This document shows, piece by piece, positions 44,885-59,088 of a DNA stretch of 64,000 nucleotides (the stretch's first letter is position 1; each line of letters begins with the position of its first letter). The stretch lies in contig CP142730.1 in assembly GCA_036630325.1 (NCBI GenBank), positions 248,001 through 312,000 on the forward strand. Direction: 5' to 3'. A program made the position numbers and the translations under genes. This DNA comes from Vairimorpha necatrix. Taxonomy: Eukaryota. Below the pieces are notes generated by a model that was not told the origin of the DNA, did no database searches, and saw only the letters and a program-made list of their open reading frames with translations.

Positions 44885-47800
44885 TAAGTAAATAATATTT
44901 TAAAGGTATTGAAAAAAAAACAGAACTATAAATTTTTAAATAAAAAGATCTATAAGTATGAAACAAGACTTTAATTTTAGAAGTAAACAGTATTGTAAGC
45001 ATAAACCTTAGGTACCCACCACAATTAATTCTTAAATATTTCTTCCCTTTCAATTTTTAGAAAATATTTTTTATAAATAAAAATATTGAAAAAGGGTATA
45101 AGAAATGAAAAGAAACAATCAATTAGACAGCCGATCGACTTATATGACTCCACAGCGAGATCATGCCGATAAAACTTTAATTAAAAACAAAATATTTTTT
45201 TTTTACTTATAAAACAACAACTTCGTTTCGGACACCTTCCCGAGGTTACGACAAAAAAAATATAAATATTAAAAATATAAGTATTGCAAGCACAAAACGG
45301 AAAAAGTATATTCTAAGAGTCTATGCGATTTCATAGGAACTAAAAAATTTTATAATTTGGAAAGAAAGAGAAGCGTGTCTATATAATATCCAAATACTAA
45401 AACTTAGAAAGTTTTGCAAACAAAAAATTCTGATTAATTAATTTGTTTGTAAATAATGTAATATAATCGGAATTTATTGATCTAGTTACACTTTATGCTC
45501 TATGTTTCAAATACATACAAAATATATGATTGTCTTTTGTGTAAGAGAGGGCATTTGCACACTGAGACTTGTACTGCACCGAAACTTAGCTCTTGATGAC
45601 AGGTTCATTGATAGACGTAAAAATCGATTGATTTTTTACAGTTCATTGGGCAAATTTATCTATGAAATAGATTCCTATAAAGTATTTTATTTTATAATTT
45701 CTTTTCGTTTTCAGATATCTTTAACATTCATCCTGTTATACCAACAAACATCTAGAAATTAATATAGTCAAGATCAAACATTAAGATTATAGGGAAATAA
45801 TATAATAAACATGCAAAGTTATAAATATTACAATGTTGAGCCGATACCAGCTAAATATATTTAACACAGATGTAAAAACAATATTTAAATACAAAAGTAA
45901 ATTGTAATTAAAAATTTTAAAAAGATTTGTTTAGATATATTAAAAAAGCTAAACTAAAAATGTAATAATGTCTACAGATAAATATTAACAGTTGTAATAA
46001 AATATAATAAACTTTTGAGGTTTGTTTTTAAGCTTTTAAAAACCCAAATTTTCATGGAGGAAAAGAATAAATCTATTTGTAACAACGGGATGTATACATA
46101 TATAAGAGAATAATATAATACAGTTACACGTTAAAACATATTGTATATGAACAGGGTTGGCACTGTCGTAGTTCATCAAGTCCCGCCAATCATCTTTATA
46201 AATGGATGTATTCCATTGAAACCTAAACTATATAAAATCATTCCCCCCAAAACGATAAGAAATCAAATAAAACAATTGACATGGCGACATTGCGAACAAT
46301 GCAAACTATTTCTTCGGATAACTAGGAGAAGTTGTAAATCCTAAGTACGAGATATAATGATGTTTAAAGGAGTCTCTAAGGGGACATAGCAACAAATGAA
46401 AAGGTCTTATTTTTAAAAGAAAAGAAAATGTTTATCTTGGGCATCCCAAGTCTTAGCAGAAAATGTAAATTTAATAGGTACACGACCGTTTGGAATCCGT
46501 TTTAAATTTAAAAGGACCCCCTTTCAAAAAATTGAAAATTAGCAAAAACAATGTTTGTTGAGGCAGATGAGCTTTTAGTGATAAAATGAATTTTTACATG
46601 AAAAACAATGAAAAGTTTATTTTGATAGGATTTGATGCCGAATATGCTTGCGCCTTGCTTGTTTCTGTAATTAGTAGAAATACTGCTATTTCCTTGAGGT
46701 AAAACAATTAATGTATAGCCTGTTTCTATTATGATCTCTAATCAATGGGTAGCGTATGAGGCCACATTAGACAATCAAAGGGATTGAGCACAGTACTATG
46801 AATCACTCCATCAATGAGTAACCCCTAGCGATTCTGAGACATAGTACGAAATAATTTAGTTGTTTTTGGCTCGTTTCAAAAAAAAATATTCGATCTATAC
46901 ATGATTTAATTGGAACGAAACAATGAGCACCTTTTACAGTTCCTCTGGGCAATTTATATCCCCAAAACCAACGGATAAATCGTCTTCTTTTATTATTTAA
47001 AATAAATCTATAAGTCCTTTTTTTATTATTTTTTTTATTTTTCAGAACAGGTTCCAAACGGTCATGTACCACTTAATAAGTATAGCAGACATTATAAAAA
47101 AAATGTCTATGTTAAAGATAATTGTAAGTTAAGGGTTAAATTTATTCAATATATATTCTCAACAGGTCAATTTCCACTTTACACCCCCCCTACATATTTA
47201 AATACAAATTTTCAAAATATCCCTTTTTGGAAACCAAAATGGAAAGAGAAGGAGAAAATTTTATAATAATAACTTTATTAATTCATCAAAATAATTATGT
47301 TTTGAGTTTCTAAGCAACAAAATTTAATAAATAGGGCAGTATTAAATCTTTTGTTCTTCATCTTACCGGTGTTAGGCGTTTAACGGCAGACCAATTCCCT
47401 TCTATAGTGTTAGTATGAACACCTGTGATAGTATATACAAACCACTTACTATGATTAACTGTATTATAAGCAGCTATTATCTGGCTCATTTTCGAATATT
47501 ATTTCCACATATCAGAATAGGCTGTTTATTGTTTATCAACATATGTAGAAATCAGACTTAATAACATATCTTTGTTCCTATTTGCGACAGGTACTAATAG
47601 AATTTTTCTTTCTAAAGTTCGTTCGACCATCCCAAATATCCATACTCCCTCTACTTTATGTCCAACGTTGTATTTACGTTTTCCAAATTTGCTTTCGTCT
47701 ACTACAACTATTATCTTTGAATCGCCTAGTGTTCCTTTTGCCGTTTTCATGTATATGATATAAACTTCATCAAGCAAAAACAGTTGAAGACATCTCGGCT

Positions 47801-47968
47801 AATATCAGCTTTAGTGTAAAAAAAATGGGGGGTCAAAATTTTTAAAAAATTGCCTCTTTTAAAAAAGGAAGGGAAGAGAAAACTTCAGAAAAAAAAAAAA
47901 ACAAAACGTATTTGGGATGTAAAAATATAATAAAATTGTATTAAAATAGGTAAAATATATCAAAAACA

Positions 47969-49363
47969 GGTTAAATTGCGATGTTACCCCCCCCCCCACC
48001 CCTAAAAAAATAAAAAAAAGGGGAAAAAATAAAAAAAAGACAAAACTAAAAAAGGAATAAAATTATGCCCCTAAAATGAACATAAAACATTTTAGAAAAT
48101 TACAATATAAAAAAGAGGAATTATTTTTATTTCTTCTTGAAAAAATTATATTAAAGGTACCAATGTGCAATAAGTTCATGACACCCATGACCAAAATTAG
48201 AAATAATTTGGACAAATATCGTTGTTACTTACGACGAAATGGGGAAAAATGCTCAAACAAAGGTAACATTTACAAAGAAAGCATTTTTAAAAGTTCTAGA
48301 TTAGATGATTAGATATCGAAGATCTTTTAATTTTGCTTTGTGAATGGGTTAAAGGTGTAAGCAATGTTTCGGCTACTATCGAATTGGATATAGATAGTAG
48401 TACCGTATCTCGCTACTTTACGCGTTTTAATAACGCTGTATTCTTATCCTATTTCAACTACCTTCAAAACAAAACCATAGGAGGTTTAAATTGCGTAGTT
48501 GAAATAGACGAGACATTGCTTGTTAAAAGTAAAAACCATAACGGTCGAATCCTCCAATACCAAGTTTGGGCCGTTGGTGGAGTTGTACGAGGAGACAGCA
48601 ATTCTTTTTTTTCGAAATTGTTGAAAATCGATTAAGAACTACTCTTGTCGATTTAATAAAACGAAAAATCGCACTCAGATCTACAATTATTACTGATTGT
48701 TGGCGGGGTTATGAAGGGTTTTCGGAACTATGTCCGGATTATAACTATTTACATTTAACTGTAAATCATAGCCAAAATTTTGTAAATCCAACAACAGGCG
48801 CCACACCCAAACAATTGAGGGAATGTGGTCTGTAATTAAAAGGTGTGGTGAACCGGGGGTAGATCCCCATTTTTTAAGTATTTTTCTAAAATACTTTTAT
48901 TAAATTTCTTTTTATTTTTATAACTGTTGTTTTCTTGTTGGTTATAATTCTTATTCATTCTTTATTCTGTTGTACCCTTCTTTCAAAAATAAATATTTAT
49001 AATAAAAATATATAAACAAACAAACAAATAAAATAAACAAACAAATAAAATAAGAATCATAAAGTCGTGACTGAAGGTCATGACAAAAGGGAATTGCGCA
49101 AAGAAGGAACAAGCCATGGTTCTTTAATGAATCTCATTCGAAAACTTTATATAGCTCGTTTTAAGTTAATTTATAGAGAATCACTACTTGAAAGAATGTT
49201 ATGCTTTTTTGAGATTGATAATATATCATTTTTAAATTACGATTTAGCGCCCGAATTTGATTTTGAATTGATTGAATAAATTTTGTTTCCCCTTTTATTT
49301 ATTTTTTCCCCTTTTTTTTATTTTTTTAGGGGTGGGGGGGGGGGGTAACATCGCAATTTAACC
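47969..49363 (+). mobile_element. Merlin DNA transposon, disrupted
   Basis: TIR GGTTAAATTGCGATGTTACCCC; ORFs 48076-48835 and 49067-49279. Confidence 0.92.
48844..49085. mobile_element. solo LTR, 242 bp
   Basis: TGTGGTGA..TCATGACA; perfect TSD AAAGG; interrupts the transposase at IKR|ELRK. Confidence 0.9.
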
Positions 49364-49570
49364 CTTTAATATATTTTTTTCAAGAAGAAATAAAAATAAT
49401 TCCTCCTTTTTATATATTAATTTTCTAAAATTCTTTATGTTCTTTTTAGGGGCATAATTTTATTCCTTTTTTATTTTCCCCCTTTTTTTTTATTTTTTCC
49501 CCTTTTTTTTATTTTTTCCCCTTTTTTTTATTTTTTTAGGGGTGTGGGAGGGTAAGTCGAGAACTTAACC
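49364..49570 (-). mobile_element. Merlin 5' end fragment
   Basis: GGTTAAGTTCTCGACTTACC terminus; start of a transposase like the one at 48076. Confidence 0.75.
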
Positions 49571-50062
49571 TAAAGATGGTATAAGACCTGTTGGAAATCT
49601 TAGCAAAAATACTATCCTGAATTATATAAATTATCTGGATTCTCCGAGATTCAATTATAATAAGAAAGCTTTATTGTATTTCGCTTATTACATAAGAAAT
49701 GATGAAAGTCATGATAATAAAATGGATATAATTGAAGAAAATGAAAATGATATGAGAAGAGAGGATAAGAATGATGATGAAAATGTATTTAGAGGAAGGA
49801 AGAGAAGAAATTAAATCTAATAAAATATTAGGATTTAAAATATCGAAAAGACTTTCAGACGACGCATACCTAGTTTTAAATGGAAAGTCGAAACTCAGAA
49901 CCAATAAAGCTCATTTAAAGTCTGTTATTAGAGGTGAGGGGATGTCGTAGTTACTTACGCTTAAACCGAGCATTTATAATGCTTGGATATTTCTTTATAT
50001 TTTTATAATATTTTAACCCCATCTTATGGAAGAAGGAAGTCAAATAAACCGTTTTACTAACA
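49571..50062 (+). mobile_element. Gypsy 3' fragment with an LTR of about 120 bp (49943-50062)
   Basis: PPT GAGGTGAGGGGA, then TGTCGTA..TACTAACA; upstream translation resembles an integrase tail (AHLK). Confidence 0.6.
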
Positions 50063-51957
50063 ATTATAAAGGTTAAAGTTATCTAGCTTAATAATATTAT
50101 TAGTTTTAGTTCTAATGCGTGAACATTTTTGTATTCTTGATACGTTTTTAGTACGAATATCAATTTTTTTCTTTATAAACTAAGTGATCCTAGTTTCTTT
50201 TCTTTAAGTAAAAATCTTAAATTCAATTTTTTTTGATGAAAAAACTAATAGTATTTTTTGTATTCAATTGCAAAATTTAATATCTTTATAGTTTTCTGCT
50301 AACCTTACAATATATTAGTTCTATAAAAAGAGACTTTTTATCAACTCAAGGCATTTATTGTGATATTGTGTTATGATCAGAATCTGACGCAGTTATAGAT
50401 CTATTAAAGGGTCGGTTTATCAAAATTCGATAATTTTTTTTTGTAAAAAAAATTTATAGATATTAAGCCATAAATTAGTTTCTGTTCTAAGGCCTTTTAT
50501 AAGTTATATTTGAAGTTTATAATATTTCCATTAAATACAAATAAAAAAATGCACATACAACATATTTAAATTTTAAATTTAAAGTCATCAACAATTTCTA
50601 ATTTTTTTAAACGTTTTAGGCTTGCATAAACTTAAGTCTTTTTTAACATTTCTGCATGAATAAATTTTAAAAATTAATAAACGAGTTTTTTGTTTACTTT
50701 TTTAAAAAAAAGATGCACTTCAGAGTTCGTAATATATATATAATGGGATTAGACTAATTATACAAAATGAATTAAAATATTACGAATTTATAATAATATT
50801 CTATGGATTTACATGTTCATATATGAAAACTAAAATTATAATTAATAGCGCAGAAATTCTTGAATATAAAGATATCTAAATTATAAGCTCGAAAATTGTG
50901 GCAATATTTACCACATTATAGATTTTTATTCTTATATTCCTTCCAATTGAATTTTCTAGAAAATATTTTGCTATTAAAATTTTTTTTTCTTTTACCCCCA
51001 CAAAAAAGGATGTGCGAGAAGAAGAATCACTACTACAATTATGGGAGGTCACCAAGAGACATATCCCCTCACAAGAGTACAGCTAATTAACCAACTGGGA
51101 TTAGCATCAATAAAAAAATTCAAATAAAACTAATCTAAGTGCAGGGGGAAGCATCGTTGAATGCTATTTACAAAATGGCCATATTCCTGGTGTCCTCACC
51201 ACAAAAATACATTTATAATGTACTTTAAAATTTCTGTTTTTTTTCTGTACAGAAATTTTTTTATATATACATAAATACTATAACAACAGTTATATTTTTT
51301 AAGATTATAAATAAAAAACTTTTATATGATATAGATTAAATCAACCCCTAAAAATTTAAATAATCATTTTGAGTCAGATCATTATTAATTAAGTCGCTAA
51401 ATGGAAATTTTATTGGTCTTTTCGAAAAAAATATTTATCGTTTTAATGGGAATGACGTGGATAATCATTTACAAAGGTAATATTTCAGTATATATATGAG
51501 AGAATTAGCATATAAAAAAATACAGTTTGTTATTAAATACATAGTAAATAATAATGTGAAAGAATTTGACAAAATTCTGACCTAAGTTTTATTCAAACCT
51601 ATTTAAATATATAATATTTGTTATAGTCAGAAAATAATTTTTTTTGTAATTAGATTTATCATTATGTCCAAAAATTCAGAAATCAAAAAACGATATTTAT
51701 AAATAGATTGTATTGTTTTTTATATAAATAAATTGTTTGATTCATAATATTCTTTTGGATTTTCAATATACGTGCTTAAAATCGTCGGAAACATTGCAAA
51801 TATTTGTAAGTAAACAATTAAAAATTACAGAAACATGTTTTTTTATCTTTTCTGAATATATTTTGAAATTATGTAAGATAAAACAAATATGAGTATACAT
51901 GATATGATAACCCCTTTCTCCTTTTAAAAGATAAAACCAAAAAAAATTACGAAGAAT

Positions 51958-53106
51958 ATGACAAAAAAGAGAGACAAACCAGAAACCCCCTTTTTACAGA
52001 CAAAATCTTCTAAGACATCTAAATCAAATAACCCGTCGAAAGCAAACAAGAAACAAAAAACTGAAAATAAAAACACAGGCACTAACACAAGAAATGATAA
52101 TGACGGTCGAAAAAAACATTCTAAATTAAAAAGAAAACAAGATACAGACTCATTTGATGATTTATATGATACTTATATCCCAGGTTCCGAGAACTGGCCA
52201 AAAAGACAAAGCTCACAGATAAAAAATAGAAATAACGCCGAAAATAGTATTTATAAATCTAAAAGTTTTAACGATTATAAAGAAGGTGATGAAAAGTTAC
52301 CTATTGAATATTTAGTTGAATGCGCCAAACAAGAAGTTGTATCGCCAAAAAAACAAAAAAAGACAAACCTTCAATATTTATTAGAAGCTGCACTTGAAGC
52401 AGAAAATGAACTAACCAAAAATTCTAACATAAAAAAAAGAAAGTTATCGGAAAAATCTGATGTTTTAAATAAAATAGAGAAAAGGAAAAATCTAAAACAA
52501 AACAAGAAGTTAGATCATACAAAAAACGAATCTAGAAAAGAAAAAGATGTTGGAATTCTTTCTGAAGCAACACTTGAATATGATAATGAACAACCCCTAG
52601 AAATTAATACAGAAAGTAGAAGATTAGAGGCGAAATCAGAATGTGAAGGGATAAAAAACATACAGAAAAAGTTAAAACATAATCAAAAGATTAGTTTAGA
52701 TCAAAATGAAGATAAATTAGTAATTCGAATACCAGCATATACTCCCCAAGAAAACTTAAAAACGAAAAAAGCGCTGAAATCAAAGAATAAAAAAATAAAA
52801 CGTGCTATGGATAACCAAGTTATAGAAAGTAAAAATTATCCTAAAGACATGTTTCCCGTAGAGTTTATTGGGGATAAAAAAATATATCTTTGTCCGTGGC
52901 GAGGTTGGGACGATATGTCCGAAACTTGCAATAGACAGTGGCATACTTTGAACCTAGTAAAAAGACATTACCATTCGCATACTGGAATAAAGGGCATTGA
53001 ATGTCCAAGCAAGGGATGTAACAGGAAGTTTACTAGAAAAGATTTTGTGAAAAGACATCTCAACGAAAGTTGCAAATACAAAGATGAAAAGAAGAAAAAA
53101 GAATAA
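51958..53106 (+). CDS. C2H2-type zinc-finger protein, probable transcription factor (382 aa)
   Basis: Intact ORF; Lys-rich N-terminus; two C-terminal fingers joined by HTGIKG (TGEKP-like); upstream CCCC motif; AATAAA downstream. Confidence 0.85.
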   Translation: MTKKRDKPETPFLQTKSSKTSKSNNPSKANKKQKTENKNTGTNTRNDNDGRKKHSKLKRKQDTDSFDDLYDTYIPGSENWPKRQSSQIKNRNNAENSIYKSKSFNDYKEGDEKLPIEYLVECAKQEVVSPKKQKKTNLQYLLEAALEAENELTKNSNIKKRKLSEKSDVLNKIEKRKNLKQNKKLDHTKNESRKEKDVGILSEATLEYDNEQPLEINTESRRLEAKSECEGIKNIQKKLKHNQKISLDQNEDKLVIRIPAYTPQENLKTKKALKSKNKKIKRAMDNQVIESKNYPKDMFPVEFIGDKKIYLCPWRGWDDMSETCNRQWHTLNLVKRHYHSHTGIKGIECPSKGCNRKFTRKDFVKRHLNESCKYKDEKKKKE

Positions 53107-55371
53107 TATTTTAAGAAAAAAGGGCAATACACTAATAAACTATAGAGTTTTATACATTTTTTCTTTTTTTTTCACGTTATGTTTTGTTTCTTTACACAAA
53201 GAAAAAAAATATGTTAATTAGCCCGATTTACAGAATAATAAATAAATTCTAAAACTTTTGAAATGCTAAGTAAATAAATTTTTAACTATTTTTAATAGAT
53301 ATATAAATAATGGACAATTTGTTTCTGTTTATTTCTTAGGGCTTTTTTTACTATAGTAAGATAAAAAGATCAATGAAATTAATTATTATTATTTATGCAA
53401 ACTAAAAAAAAAAATTTTCATCTATTTTTTATCAGAATTATAACGAAATTATATTAATTCCGTCTTACTTACACTTGTGTTATTGTAGTCTTTTGTTTAT
53501 TTTGTATAACTTTAAGTACGTAATAATTTTATGAAAATAGAAAATAGAAAAAAAATACGTTATTGTACTTAACTTCTATTTTTAAAAAATTAATTTTAAA
53601 ATAACACTGGTCGGATATGATCAAATGACATGTTGTAAGGCTGAACTTATGCTTATAAATACTACGACTTTTGAAAGGAAAATCAAGAAAAGAATATGTC
53701 TGAACAAAAGAAAACATTTTCATATTATGACAATCGAACAAATTTATGCTTCCAAATAACTTCGAACTATTGTATGAAAAACACATAGAAGTAGTATTGT
53801 ACACCATCCGCGATGATAATATTGGAATAATCTAAAGATAATTTATTTCGTGCTCATTGTATTTTTCAATATTTCTCTTCGTATGTATTAACCAGGAAAA
53901 TTTCTCTTAAAATATTCTTTGTATATTATATCATAAATGTTTATCATAAAACTACAATAAAAGCTTTCATACTGCAAAATTATCATAATATCCTACCTGT
54001 CACATACAGACATAACTTTTTAATGTATGACTTCTCTTTGAAATAAATTATGTCATTTGGGGGTTTGTGGAAAATCAGAATTTAATTATTAATTAATGCA
54101 TAAATAAGAATCATCTGGTCTGTTAATTTTTTTTGCAACCAACCTAAATCAAATTTTTAAATGCCGTATATTTATATAAATTTTCTATTTCAGATCTAAT
54201 TTCTATGAAAGATACTCGTTTTTATCTTATATTTGTAAAATAAAGAACAATCTGGTATTTGAAAAGTAACAACATCGAAATAATTGCGTAATTAATCACT
54301 ATACAAAAAACAAATGCTAGGATAAGATATATTGCTGAAGTCCAATGTAAAATGTAAGATAACATTGACATAAAAAATCATAAAAACATTGTATCAATAC
54401 ACAAATAATATAATGTGATCAATTGTTTTCCTCTTATTTATTTTTACATTTATGTTTTGGCGCTTTGTGAAGATCTTAAATTTATATATAACTACATAGT
54501 TCGTAACTGTAGAAAGTATGCTGTACTTTTTTAAGTACAATTAAAAAAAATCAATGCAACTTTTAACTTATTCGAATATTTTGGCCAAAAATAATTTTTT
54601 TGAGTGTCATATAGTATGAGATTACGATGTTATTGGCTGAATCTTCCATAAATATTAAGTGTTGAAGTAGACTAAATATGCAGTATTGAAATATTATCTC
54701 AATTACTTATCTTCGTCAATTCGAAGATGGATTTATATTCAACACAAACAATTGTTTCAGATGCCAAGAAGACAATCCGATTCGTCCGGATTATCCGTCG
54801 TCCACAATAAATTATATACTTATTGCTAATGGTCAAAAACATAAAGTATTTTTAAATTTTAAAGTAATTGAACACAACAATACAGACTTATATACGAAAG
54901 AAGGCATAGAAATGTATTTTTATAAGCATTAACATAACAACCGTCACCATTTAAACACCCTTAAACTACAATTATTTAAACAATCTGTTTACATAGAGTT
55001 TGAAGAAACTCCTTTAAAAGAAATTAAAATCAATATATATATATATAAAAATTTTATGTAAAAATAAAACAAACAAATAAATTAAATAAAAAAGGTAAAA
55101 ATACAAAAAAAATTGAAAGGATTGAAACATAAAGACTCTTTTATACCAGTAATGAGCCATCAACTGTTTTTAGAGTTTAACAGAGCTTAAAAAATACAGA
55201 AAGAGTACGGTAAAAAGATACAATAAAACCAGATTGGCATATAATTTAAGTCACTATCATTATAAATATATTGAGAGGTGAAAACTTCTAAGGTTTAAAA
55301 CGTTTTAAGTAAATATTTCGAGTTTTTTTTAACAGTTTACTATTATAAAAAAATAGAACTGTAGTATTATT

Positions 55372-55470
55372 TGTCACCGTTCGGAGCGGAATCCAAGAAA
55401 AAGGCTTACTTGAGAAGGGTAAAAAATTAAGAAAAAAATATCTGTTAGGAGCGGAATCTAGGAAAAATGC
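55372..55470. mobile_element. Ginger-like terminal fragment
   Basis: TGTCACCGTTCGGAGCGGA..GGGTAAAAAATTAAGAAAAA matches the terminus at 61078. Confidence 0.65.
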
Positions 55471-56300
55471 GGCCAAAGTCAGCTTTTGGCCGCAAATTTC
55501 GATATAGGAGTTTTTTTTGCCCCTTTTTAAAAAAAATGGAAGAAAAAAATGACAAGAGCAGAATTGGAAACAGTGTATAAAAATTTAATTACTAAAAGAC
55601 AAAATCAGATTTACAGTGTGTGTGATAATAGATGAGGCTTACGAGAAAACATAGTTGTGTTTTAATTTGTACCTGGAAAGATTGTAAGAAGCAAACATCG
55701 ATATGGACAAATACTTTCTTTGAAAACTCCAAACTCGATCATGTCCCGATTTTGTAGGTACTAAATTCGTGGATTCTTAGCTATATTCGTAAATTTATTT
55801 GCCAAATTCTCTGTTGTTCTAAAACTTCGATATCTTTTTTACTTAAAAAATTAAAGGAAATAAATTTCTATGATATATATTTATCATCTTTAACAAGATA
55901 GGAGGAGAAGATATCATTGTTATAATAAATGAAATTAAAATTGGAAAAAATAAATATAACAGAGGAAAATTAGTGAAGGGATTTTGGTGTTTAGGCATGA
56001 TAGAATGTTTTATCGAACGTAAGATTGTGGTTCTATATATTTGAAAATGAGATAAAAAATTCAAATGGGTCTTTTATTAAAATTTGTAAGTTCAAAAGAT
56101 CTATACATAGTGATATGTAGAGGGCTTATCATTTTCAAGTGAGAATATTTAAGAATGCCATATGTTAACCACTTGTTGACTTTCGAGATCCAATACTGGG
56201 GTTCACACAAATACTATTAACGCAATTGGCGTTCCCCATAAACTCTATACCTAAAAACAAGTAGGAAAATAGCGCAAAACATTATTTATCTAGGTACATG
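55471..56300 (+). mobile_element. highly degenerate Merlin, 3' end lost
   Basis: TIR GGCCAAAGTCAGCTTT; homologous to 24518-25537. Confidence 0.8.
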
Positions 56301-56766
56301 TATGATATCATGAATGCCATAAAAATATTATAAACATTTCCCTCCTATAATTATTTAATATTTAACACAAATAAGGGGCACGTGATGAACAGAAAGCATA
56401 AAATTTTTTTTTAAATACATTTCTGAGTGGTGAATACCACAAGTTAATTTTAACAAAGACGTATCCTAAACAAACCAAAAAGATGGATAAAGAGTAAAGG
56501 AACATGGTCAGCTTCGAGATCAATGTCAACAGCCCAAAGCCAATCATTATTAAACAATTTGAGATTATAAGTGATATCGAGAAAACCAATATGCTAGAAT
56601 GGTTTAGTAATTCGAAGAGCTGTGTAATAAATTGGAATTGGACGAGGAAGAGATTCTCCTAGTACTACATTTAATTGAGGATAAATAATGGAAAAAAAGT
56701 GGTAGTCTAAAAAAATTATAAAAAATAAAAAGAAAATATAAGTGTCGTATATCCACATCACTTATT
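56301..56766 (+). mobile_element. Gypsy 5' fragment (LTR 56301-56441 plus gag start)
   Basis: Homologous to the reverse complement of 1800-2318. Confidence 0.75.
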
Positions 56767-57826
56767 GGCTAAAATCAGCTTTAGTGTAAAAAAATGGGGG
56801 GTCAAAATTTTTAAAAAATTGCCCCTTTTTTAAAAAAAGGAAGGGAAGAGAAAACTTCAGAAAAAAAATAAAATGTAATTAAGATATAAAAATATAAATT
56901 TGTATTAAAATAAGTAAAATATATCAAAAACATAATTTTAATAATGCTTCAAAGGCGTCTTGAATCTCATTTCTTTTAATCATATATAGAGTTAAATAGA
57001 TTTCAGACAGTTCATATGTTCTACACCTGTTGGGTATAGAAGCTTTTAAAGACCTCCAATTCCCTTCGATGGTGTTTGTATGGACACATGTTTCATTATT
57101 TCTAAATGTTTGACTGTGATTCACAGTTCTATGATCTGCATAATGGCCTTTTAACGTTATATATGCCTTTCATATATCGAAACGAATGATTGATTTTAAA
57201 TTTACATGCTTTAATAAAATTGGCAGCAATGTATTTTTGTTTCTTTTATTTATTATGACAAAGATTATCTTCTTTTCTATTGTTCTCTTACCATTCCAAA
57301 ACACCAAAACTCCTTAACCGATCTTCCTCTGTGGTATTTATTCTTACCTATTTTACATTCATCGATCTCCACTATAGTATTTCCGCCTCCTATTTGCTTT
57401 GTTTTATTTATATATTTCTCATAAATTTTTAATTTATATAATTTTTCAAGTGTAGAAGTTACATTTTGTATGTTACAGTCTAAAATTTTAGAAATATGCG
57501 CTACTTTAAGTCCCATTGTCCATAAATTAACAATTTTCAGCATAAGAATATGATCTATCTTACTATTTGAAAATAGAGTATTATTCCATATTGAAAATCT
57601 GTGTCCGCATTTGGGAAACTTACGTCTCAGATAAGCTGTTTCATTTGATACTCTAGATGTATTCCAATCACAAATTGTACATTTCTGCTTATATTTTTTA
57701 TTTTGCAGGTTTTCATAAAAATCAATAATTTCTTCATTGCTCATCATTCCCTTCCTTTTTTAAAAAAAGCAATTTTTTTAAAATTTTGACCCCCCCCATT
57801 TTTTTACACTAAAGCTGTTTTAAGCC
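56767..57826 (-). mobile_element. Merlin DNA transposon, right arm of the composite
   Basis: TIRs GGCT..CAGCTTTAGTG; ORFs 57277-57747 and 56924-57124; its first ~165 bp are a direct repeat of 47797-47968. Confidence 0.92.
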
Positions 57827-57902
57827 GACATCTCGATACAATACTGGGTGAAATACTTAACAACTTGGCGATTAGGAGAGGCGGAATTTGCGTAAGCCAG
57901 AG

Positions 57903-58127
57903 TGTGGTATCCACCACTTAAGAACATGTCAAGAATATTAATATTTATTTGTTTGTTTACCGTATTGGTTAATCTTCTTGTTTCCTGTTCTTTATTCATC
58001 TCGTACCCCTGGATGGATAAAATGTTTAAATATTTATCGGAGGGAAAAGTATTGGACTTGGAGGGAAAGATGTCAAATTTGGAGGGAAATGTTAGTAAAC
58101 ATATCGTATGATATTTAGGATATCATA
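57903..58127 (-). mobile_element. solo LTR, 225 bp
   Basis: Perfect TSD CAGAG; ends TATGATAT..ATACCACA on the minus strand; interrupts the transposase at ILNL|WLTQ. Confidence 0.9.
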
Positions 58128-58893
58128 CAGAGGTTCAGGATCTTTAACATTAGTATATGATCCAAGTGGGGTTTTGCAAATATCGTATTTGCAAAAAGGC
58201 TCCCCTCTTTTTTGCATTTTTTACCAATGCATCTGACAGCGTACCCCCTTTGCTGTCTTTTCTTAACTTCTTTACCACATTTTCTGCATTTTATTTTAAG
58301 AGGTTTTTCTTTTATCTTTTCGTATGCTATGTTAATTTCCTCGTTGGTAAGCATAAAATAGGGTACAGAAAAAAAATCTATAATCGGCGCTACTAAAGAA
58401 CTAAGAAGTTATTTTTACTTATAAAACAGAGAAGTAAGTTCAAATAAATAACTTATTCTTTTGTTTTGTTTATTCATTATCAATAAAAAAACAAAATATA
58501 TACTAATAAACATGTAACATAAAGTGACTTATAGTATATTATTTGTTTTTATATGATAAAATTAACATGAATTATATATTTATATTTTTATAAAAGATAA
58601 TTTAAATAGTACTTTTTTTTATTTTTTTTTTCTCCTCCTTTTTTTCCATTTTGGTTTTCCAAAAAGGGATATTTTTTAAAAATTTGTATTTATATTTGTA
58701 GGGAGAGTGTAAAGTGGAAATGTTCCTCTAAACATCCCCGCGCTAATTTAAAACCGGAAATGTAATTATCTTTACAACTTCCTACGCCTACTACTTGGCT
58801 TTCAAAATAAAAGTGCATTTTTTAAGTTAATTGATCATGGGCTGCACTTTATTCTTTCGCGTCTTACTATCCCTTCTTGTATTGGTCTTTACG

Positions 58894-59088
58894 TGTGGAA
58901 TACCGGGGAAACGTTCCCGTTAATAAAGTACCACTCCAAAATAGATTTAATATATTTAGTTTTATTTTTAAACGTCCCCCTGAACTCTCTCAAAGCACCT
59001 TGTTGCTATCTCCAAAGCTCCTTGTATTTGTCTCTCCATCACCTTTCTGTACCCTTTTTTTTTATAAAAATTATTTATAACAAATAAT
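58894..59088. mobile_element. LTR fragment
   Basis: TGTGGAATACCGGGGAAAC.., similar to the LTR at 62708. Confidence 0.65.

Follow-up and report, generated by a model that had tools for sequence, protein, structure and literature searches.

The 64,000-bp stretch analysed here, hereafter called the window, corresponds to C5:248001-312000 of the Vairimorpha necatrix genome assembly (15.0 Mb in 12 contigs, called C1-C12). It contains a 10,030-bp block that begins with a Merlin transposon left end at 47797 and ends with a Merlin right end at 57826, and an exact 8-bp duplication, GACATCTC, lies directly outside both ends. Inside the block, an intact zinc-finger gene lies in a segment that has a close copy on C12. 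The locus is a gene duplication between chromosomes that is bounded by Merlin elements and was made at least partly by Merlin transposition. We named the Merlin families A, B, G, and O; the two arms of the block belong to A, and the outer element that the block interrupts belongs to O. Apart from the zinc-finger gene, the long open reading frames (ORFs) in the window resemble those of Ty3/gypsy, integrase-type, or Merlin transposon proteins, as judged by inspection and, for some of them, by a scan. The features are listed in Table 1, and positions given without a contig name are those of the window.

Table 1 Features of the Merlin-bounded block and of the element that it interrupts.
Feature	Position	Strand	Remark
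Outer Merlin (family O), first part, including the first GACATCTC	47165-47796	-	Terminal inverted repeat (TIR) at 47165; 87-89% identical to uninterrupted copies
Outer target-site duplication GACATCTC, left copy	47789-47796	.	Single in 3 of the 3 closest O copies
Left arm, 172-bp start of a family-A Merlin	47797-47968	+	Cut off by element B1
Family-B Merlin B1, unmatched flanks	47969-49363	+	Left flank from A body, right flank from B body
Chimeric Merlin end, B body with family-G TIR, joined in a shared subterminal repeat	49364-49570	-	From alignment
Cargo of 7,196 bp, copy of a locus resembling C12:558275-569983	49571-56766	+	About 3% substitutions overall
Core present in each of the four genomic copies (on C5, on C12, and twice on C9)	50063-55372	+	
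Intact gene of 382 amino acids, two C-terminal zinc fingers	51958-53106	+	
Decayed transposon DNA of donor origin, comprising a Merlin-like remnant and the beginning of a dispersed repeat	55373-56766	+	
Inner target site of the right arm, CACTTATT	56759-56766	.	Single and empty on C12
Right arm, complete family-A Merlin of 1,060 bp	56767-57826	+	Transposase on the minus strand, broken
Outer target-site duplication GACATCTC, right copy	57827-57834	.	
Outer Merlin (family O), second part	57835-58726	-	Continues in register across the block

The O element has its own ends outside the block, at 47165 and 58726, and their flanks agree at seven of eight bases. We examined 11 O copies at the position of the insertion. 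In the three closest copies (87-89% identical), GACATCTC occurs once and is followed directly by the sequence found to the right of the block, and in the eight copies that are more distant a related 8-mer occupies the site once. The chance of finding GACATCTC at a fixed place is 8e-6, as calculated from the composition of the window. The block is a true insertion into the O element. The O copy on C6 has an IS1595-type domain, and the insertion site, being inside a transposase gene, cannot be the ancestral place of the zinc-finger gene.

Both arms are members of the same family and are in direct orientation. Family A is about 1,070 bp long with a 28-bp TIR ending in GG, and all three A ends in the block start with GGCT. 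An 8-bp duplication (at most one mismatch) flanks 16 of the 19 full A elements recovered from 30 loci; the right arm is among the three exceptions. The A member at C12:879.7 kb, which is 89% identical to the right arm, has an intact ORF of 274 amino acids that scores 60.7 bits against PF12762 (cut-off 27); the right arm, with its own ORF broken, does not score. Merlin elements, eukaryotic relatives of IS1016/IS1595, are characterized by TIRs of at least 24 bp starting with GG, an 8- or 9-bp duplication, and a DDE_Tnp_IS1595 transposase (PMC8101967). Family A has the GG-type TIR, the 8-bp duplication, and the IS1595 transposase features, and belongs to the Merlin superfamily. It resembles the Merlins described from microsporidia, which are about 1 kb long with GG-ended TIRs, an 8-bp duplication, and an IS1595-type DDE transposase (PMC4202319, PMC8101967).

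Three further copies of the cargo were found in the genome (C12:558-570 kb, C9:217-223 kb, and C9:631-645 kb). The C12 locus covers 49571-56766 apart from indels, with 0.8-4.6% substitutions per segment and about 97% identity, and across the gene region the identity of the two C9 copies to C5 and C12 is about 90%. Judged by its sequence, the cargo is a transplanted copy of the locus found on C12. The match to C12 stops at the last base before the TIR of the right arm, where C12 runs from CACTTATT into a dispersed repeat. Five other copies of this repeat at CACTTATT (among 19 matches) are also uninterrupted there, indicating that the empty state is ancestral. Because this site is empty on C12, it was transposition that joined the inner TIR of the right arm to donor DNA. 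The flanks of the right arm thus come from two insertion sites, CACTTATT of the donor on the inner side and GACATCTC of C5 on the outer side. Three junctions of the block, the two outer ones and the right inner one, are of the transposase type, and the exact duplication of GACATCTC together with the join of the right arm to CACTTATT at a site empty on C12 shows that a Merlin transposase made them. With both of its arms broken, the block is a fossil that could move again only with transposase supplied by an intact copy at another locus.

A preliminary description of this stretch, made from the sequence alone, had proposed a Merlin-ended block of 10,030 bp with a perfect 8-bp duplication, the restoration of another transposase with its own TIRs and duplication upon removal of the block, arms in direct repeat with the left one truncated, and an intact C2H2 gene; all of these were confirmed. 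The right arm, described there as full, is full-length, but its transposase ORF breaks after about 160 amino acids. The block was also said to hold about 5 kb of non-transposon DNA with the C2H2 gene. The gene lies there, but the 5.3 kb in question includes a dispersed repeat of about 300 bp. A search for a donor or paralogues of 50063-55371, which the same description had suggested, yielded the C12 copy (about 97% identical) and the two copies on C9.

The copies of the cargo differ in their repeat content. The dispersed repeat of about 300 bp is located at 50896-51204, upstream of the zinc-finger gene; the copies on C5 and C12 and one of those on C9 contain it, and the copy at C9:218 kb lacks it. 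Two insertions are found on C12 and are absent from the window: a 1.6-kb insertion with long terminal inverted repeats starting with TACCGGG (C12:559246-560814), and a 3.1-kb insertion of the Ty3/gypsy type (C12:561018-564074). We also considered whether the cargo is itself a mobile unit. The two C9 copies share 7.9 kb, the ends of which have no visible TIR or duplication, and this explanation was rejected.

The ORF of the zinc-finger gene is open for 382 amino acids. The C-terminal part of the predicted protein matches WT1/Zif268-type fingers (best E 4.5e-15), the Pfam zf-C2H2 score is under its cut-off, and the protein is probably a transcription factor. With a C9 copy as the outgroup, the C5 branch has seven synonymous and six non-synonymous changes, and the C12 branch has five and eight, respectively; the coding regions of the C5 and C12 copies differ at 26 positions. 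The ratio of non-synonymous to synonymous changes per site (pN/pS) on the C5 branch is 0.20 (Fisher p 0.004), a substitution pattern indicating that the C5 gene is under purifying selection; some of the C5-branch changes may be older than the move. Database searching gave three relatives among 6,310 candidates, all of them V. necatrix paralogs of this genome. The fourth gene copy, at C9:633540-634674, is frameshifted, yet a database protein of 266 amino acids is annotated from it. Eight distant matches to the zinc-finger region, with 31-45% identity, were located at C7:845308, C5:674374, C5:691183, C8:298834, C5:672361, C7:839805, C1:575301, and C1:589570. Some of them are paired, which suggests a small expanded family.

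The left side of the block is more complex than the right side. The flanks of B1 come from different bodies, and B1 therefore marks a deletion: the left arm breaks off after 172 bases, at the start of B1, and its inner side was deleted. Unmatched flanks were observed in 5 of 24 full B copies. No match to the reciprocal junction of B1 was detected in the assembly. In the chimeric end that follows B1, the G TIR is succeeded by TAAAGATG, and the C12 counterpart is a complete G element flanked by TAAAGATG at either end. Among 30 scored B-left bodies, only the one at 49364-49570 has a G-type TIR. By alignment, the left edge of the cargo is a B/G exchange in the low-complexity subterminal repeat shared by the two families. 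The opposite chimera, with a G body, a B TIR at one end, and unmatched flanks, is located at C12:528315-529780 and represents a second B/G exchange.

Further observations concern the elements on this side. B1 contains a 241-bp insert at about 48844-49084 that is absent from other B copies, starts with TGTGG, and resembles the ends at 58894 and 62708; it is probably a solo long terminal repeat. We asked whether the B body at 49364 corresponds to either of the B copies, two in number, that lie upstream on C12; this was not supported, as five other copies matched it better, although a comparison over 112 bp is a weak test. An orphan 3' half of an A element at C7:279-284 kb was considered as the lost remainder of the left arm and was rejected, as its flank leads to a C6/C7 repeat and not to C12. 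This half (C7:279424-284292), which is 94% identical to the right arm, adjoins a B element with unmatched flanks and is split by a 4.3-kb insert.

Our favored reading, to which we assign a probability of roughly 0.55, is that a single transposition used the ends of two family-A copies and went from a donor allele into the O element on C5. The donor would have had an A element at CACTTATT, consistent with the precise join of an A end to donor DNA, and a second A copy would have been present on the same allele. Acting together, one copy's left end and the other's right end would have brought the zinc-finger locus of a C12-type allele into O. Repeat-to-repeat events, later or concurrent, removed most of the left arm and formed the B/G junction. 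The transposition may have taken one of two forms. Classical macrotransposition by the outer ends, with the second A copy upstream on the donor allele, is plausible but falls somewhat short of even odds. Transposition by reversed ends during replication, with the second A copy downstream and the B/G joint as a product of repair, appears quite unlikely; the B/G homology joint is present, and the DNA to the left of it is untraced to the donor. Whether the block is a natural Merlin/IS1595 composite in the style of bacterial insertion sequences (IS), in which two 1-kb Merlins moved a putative transcription-factor gene between microsporidian chromosomes, is in our estimate an even question.

The exact outer duplication and the uninterrupted state of the related O copies argue for the use of two ends, as do the arms, which are of one family and in direct orientation, and their ages. 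Private changes number 14 in 1,060 bp for the right arm, 3 in 162 bp for the left arm, and 23 in 2,056 bp for the C5 branch of the cargo, corresponding to 1.1% in the first 350 bp of the right arm (4/350) and 1.4% in its remainder (10/710), 1.9% in the left arm, and 1.1% in the cargo. These similar rates indicate that arms and cargo are of about one age. As in a composite transposon, two copies of one element bound the cargo, and the duplication is found on the outside only, with an empty site in relatives. Of the inner ends, the right one abuts donor DNA, and the left one has been replaced by the B1 deletion and the B/G joint. A Pack-type element, that is, a single element with captured DNA, was rejected on the basis of the third, internal A end and the full-length element inside the block.

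Several observations weigh against the two-copy transposition. C12:490-590 kb contains one A copy only, which is on the opposite strand and 77-80% identical, and neither arm is present there. The inner flank of the left arm is destroyed, leaving no tie of this arm to C12, and the left edge of the cargo is a recombination junction rather than an A end. Recombination between Merlin copies is common, as seen in the B copies with unmatched flanks, the A mosaics, and the second B/G chimera. The unit occurs once. Neither an excision scar nor a reciprocal junction was found in the assembly loci examined. Repeated movement was likewise not detected: the three other cargo copies have no A arm in the stretches fetched, and there was no second far-apart matched pair among the 103 A ends surveyed. 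V. necatrix is reported to be tetraploid (PMC10759460), and the donor allele may thus sit in a haplotype outside this assembly. The preliminary description had held that two Merlins moved a host locus as an IS-style composite. The insertion, the C12 copy, and the empty site of the right arm agree with this, but the position of the left arm beside the donor cargo was not recovered.

The same description had offered, as an alternative, the recombination of a circle into an existing Merlin, and this survives as part of a strong rival explanation, although one that we consider less probable than the use of two ends. Here an ordinary A element resident at GACATCTC would already have acquired a B element, and ectopic recombination would have patched in donor DNA by two exchanges, B/G on the left and A/A on the right, or from a circle. 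The outer duplication would then be old, the block would at no time have been transposed as a whole, and the donor would have an A element at CACTTATT. A single donor A copy suffices for this route, repeat-to-repeat recombination is frequent in the genome, and the left cargo edge, a B/G homology junction without an A end, is as it would predict. The nearest relatives of the right arm also change along its length: positions 1-350 match C5:505304 at 94-100% identity, and AAC-type copies are the nearest to the 3' part. The breakpoint is significant against single partners (0/300 permutations) and falls at about 590 or at about 350-430, depending on the partner. However, mosaics occur family-wide, including in copies with intact duplications, so that the pattern of the right arm is not diagnostic, and as the break moves with the partner we rejected it as a demonstration of recombination. 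The possibility that a young 5' half was joined to an old 3' half was also rejected, because the private changes of the right arm are evenly spread. The resident-element route further requires two interchromosomal exchanges, one of them within about 70 bp of low-complexity sequence. The outer TIRs of the block differ in subtype, as in none of the 23 other matched pairs, but the ends of the right arm itself are mixed likewise, and this observation does not separate the readings. In the family-A mosaics, which combine different sublineages, the breaks lie near positions 360 and 596, and template switching in gap repair is one possible cause.

A second rival, alternative transposition of one element, is in our view very unlikely. 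In this scheme, the ends of a replicated A element at GACATCTC, located on the two sister chromatids, would have attacked the C12 locus or a circle of it at CACTTATT, with a B/G exchange resolving the translocation into an insertion; the two arms would then stem from a single element, and C12 would need no A copy, in agreement with the lack of an A arm there. The left-end type common to both arms is found in 5 of 39 A left ends, and among 38 other left ends the closest to the left arm is the right arm (93.2%), in a near tie with C5:505304 (92.7%). Against this, three other A copies are nearer to the right arm (95-97%) than the left arm is. At sites on which three close relatives are in agreement, there are differences at 8 of 134 in the left arm and at 0 of 137 in the right arm. 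This argues that the arms are two distinct copies of one sublineage, and the asymmetry of eight to zero (sign test about 0.008, calculated by hand) counts against twins unless the left arm was locally converted. In addition, this scheme predicts a reciprocal junction in which CACTTATT and the downstream DNA of C12 follow an A right end, and the assembly does not contain it. Two sequencing runs include 48% and 20% of the words sampled from the stretch, with no RNA run listed, and count neither for nor against the assembly. An assembly artefact, with Merlin repeats as the bridge by which a C12 haplotype was merged into C5, is highly unlikely even though the region is repeat-dense, the organism probably polyploid, and the junctions known from the assembly alone, since the cargo is about 3% diverged from C12 and without its two insertions, the arms share only 172 bp at 87-93% identity, the left join would have to run through about 70 bp of imperfect homology, and the outer duplication and O element are in exact register.

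Tn5, Tn9, and Tn10 are IS-flanked composite transposons of bacteria. The block resembles such composites in having two IS-like copies around a passenger gene and a duplication on the outside only (PMC6431247); unlike them, it has no known selectable cargo, no active arm, and a single copy. Maize Ac/Ds macrotransposons of 10-28 kb have been described (Huang and Dooner 2008, Wang et al. 2022, as cited in PMC9910405). They likewise consist of the ends of two linked TIR elements around host DNA, which move together, with an 8-bp duplication outside (PMC9910405), but are hAT elements of plants followed in real time, whereas the present case is a single Merlin/IS1595 fossil with the two-element donor not in hand. 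In the reversed-ends composite insertions of maize, as here, the ends lie outside and the duplicated flanking DNA inside, the joint is made by homology or microhomology, and the donor is copied and not lost (PMC4270019). The described insertions lie close to their donor, on one chromosome with it, and retain flanking DNA of both elements (PMC4270019), whereas the block is on another contig and keeps the flank of the right arm only. The foldback-bounded composite element of Ising in Drosophila also contains host genes between two transposon copies and relocates them as a unit; it differs in its size of hundreds of kilobases, its foldback elements, and its demonstrated repeated mobility (PMC6431247).

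Pairs of TIR elements that move host DNA were thus already known (Ac, foldback), and the Merlin and microsporidian case is new in the literature that we searched. No report of a two-element composite in Merlin or in microsporidia was found in that literature, which left most subscription journals outside, and the word "composite" is absent from the main text of PMC4202319, PMC8101967, and PMC10759460. For this one duplication, which involves a regulatory gene that is intact and under selection, the donor, the empty sites, and the junctions can be read base by base. If two Merlin ends acted together, Merlin would join Ac/Ds and foldback elements as a eukaryotic TIR superfamily that moves host genes in the IS style, echoing IS1595. 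Segmental duplications are reported to be frequent in microsporidia (10.1101/2025.05.12.652816), with no mechanism given in the part of that source consulted, and a composite would provide a transposase-driven route to them. If the resident-element route is correct, the locus is a well-resolved repeat-mediated duplication. On either reading, it is a single dead unit and not a new class of element.

Of families A, B, G, and O, the genome-wide search for distant matched ends covered A alone. A pattern search counted 104 A ends, and the flanks of 103 were read from fetched loci with a looser pattern that a few may escape. Twenty-four pairs of ends on the same contig share an 8-mer (at most one mismatch); 20 of these are 1.0-1.1 kb apart, and the others 1.6, 2.7, 5.6, and 10 kb. 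The 10-kb pair is the block itself, the sole far-apart pair that bounds such a unit among the 103 ends, so that the scan for distant Merlin ends proposed in the preliminary description, run here for family A, gave no second far pair. None of the 103 ends adjoins CACTTATT as the reciprocal product of the right arm would, and the assembly contains no such junction. Four A-like ends on C2 (674181, 719344, 758583, and 800366) have the same 8-bp flank at a spacing of 39-45 kb, which suggests a large tandem segmental repeat.

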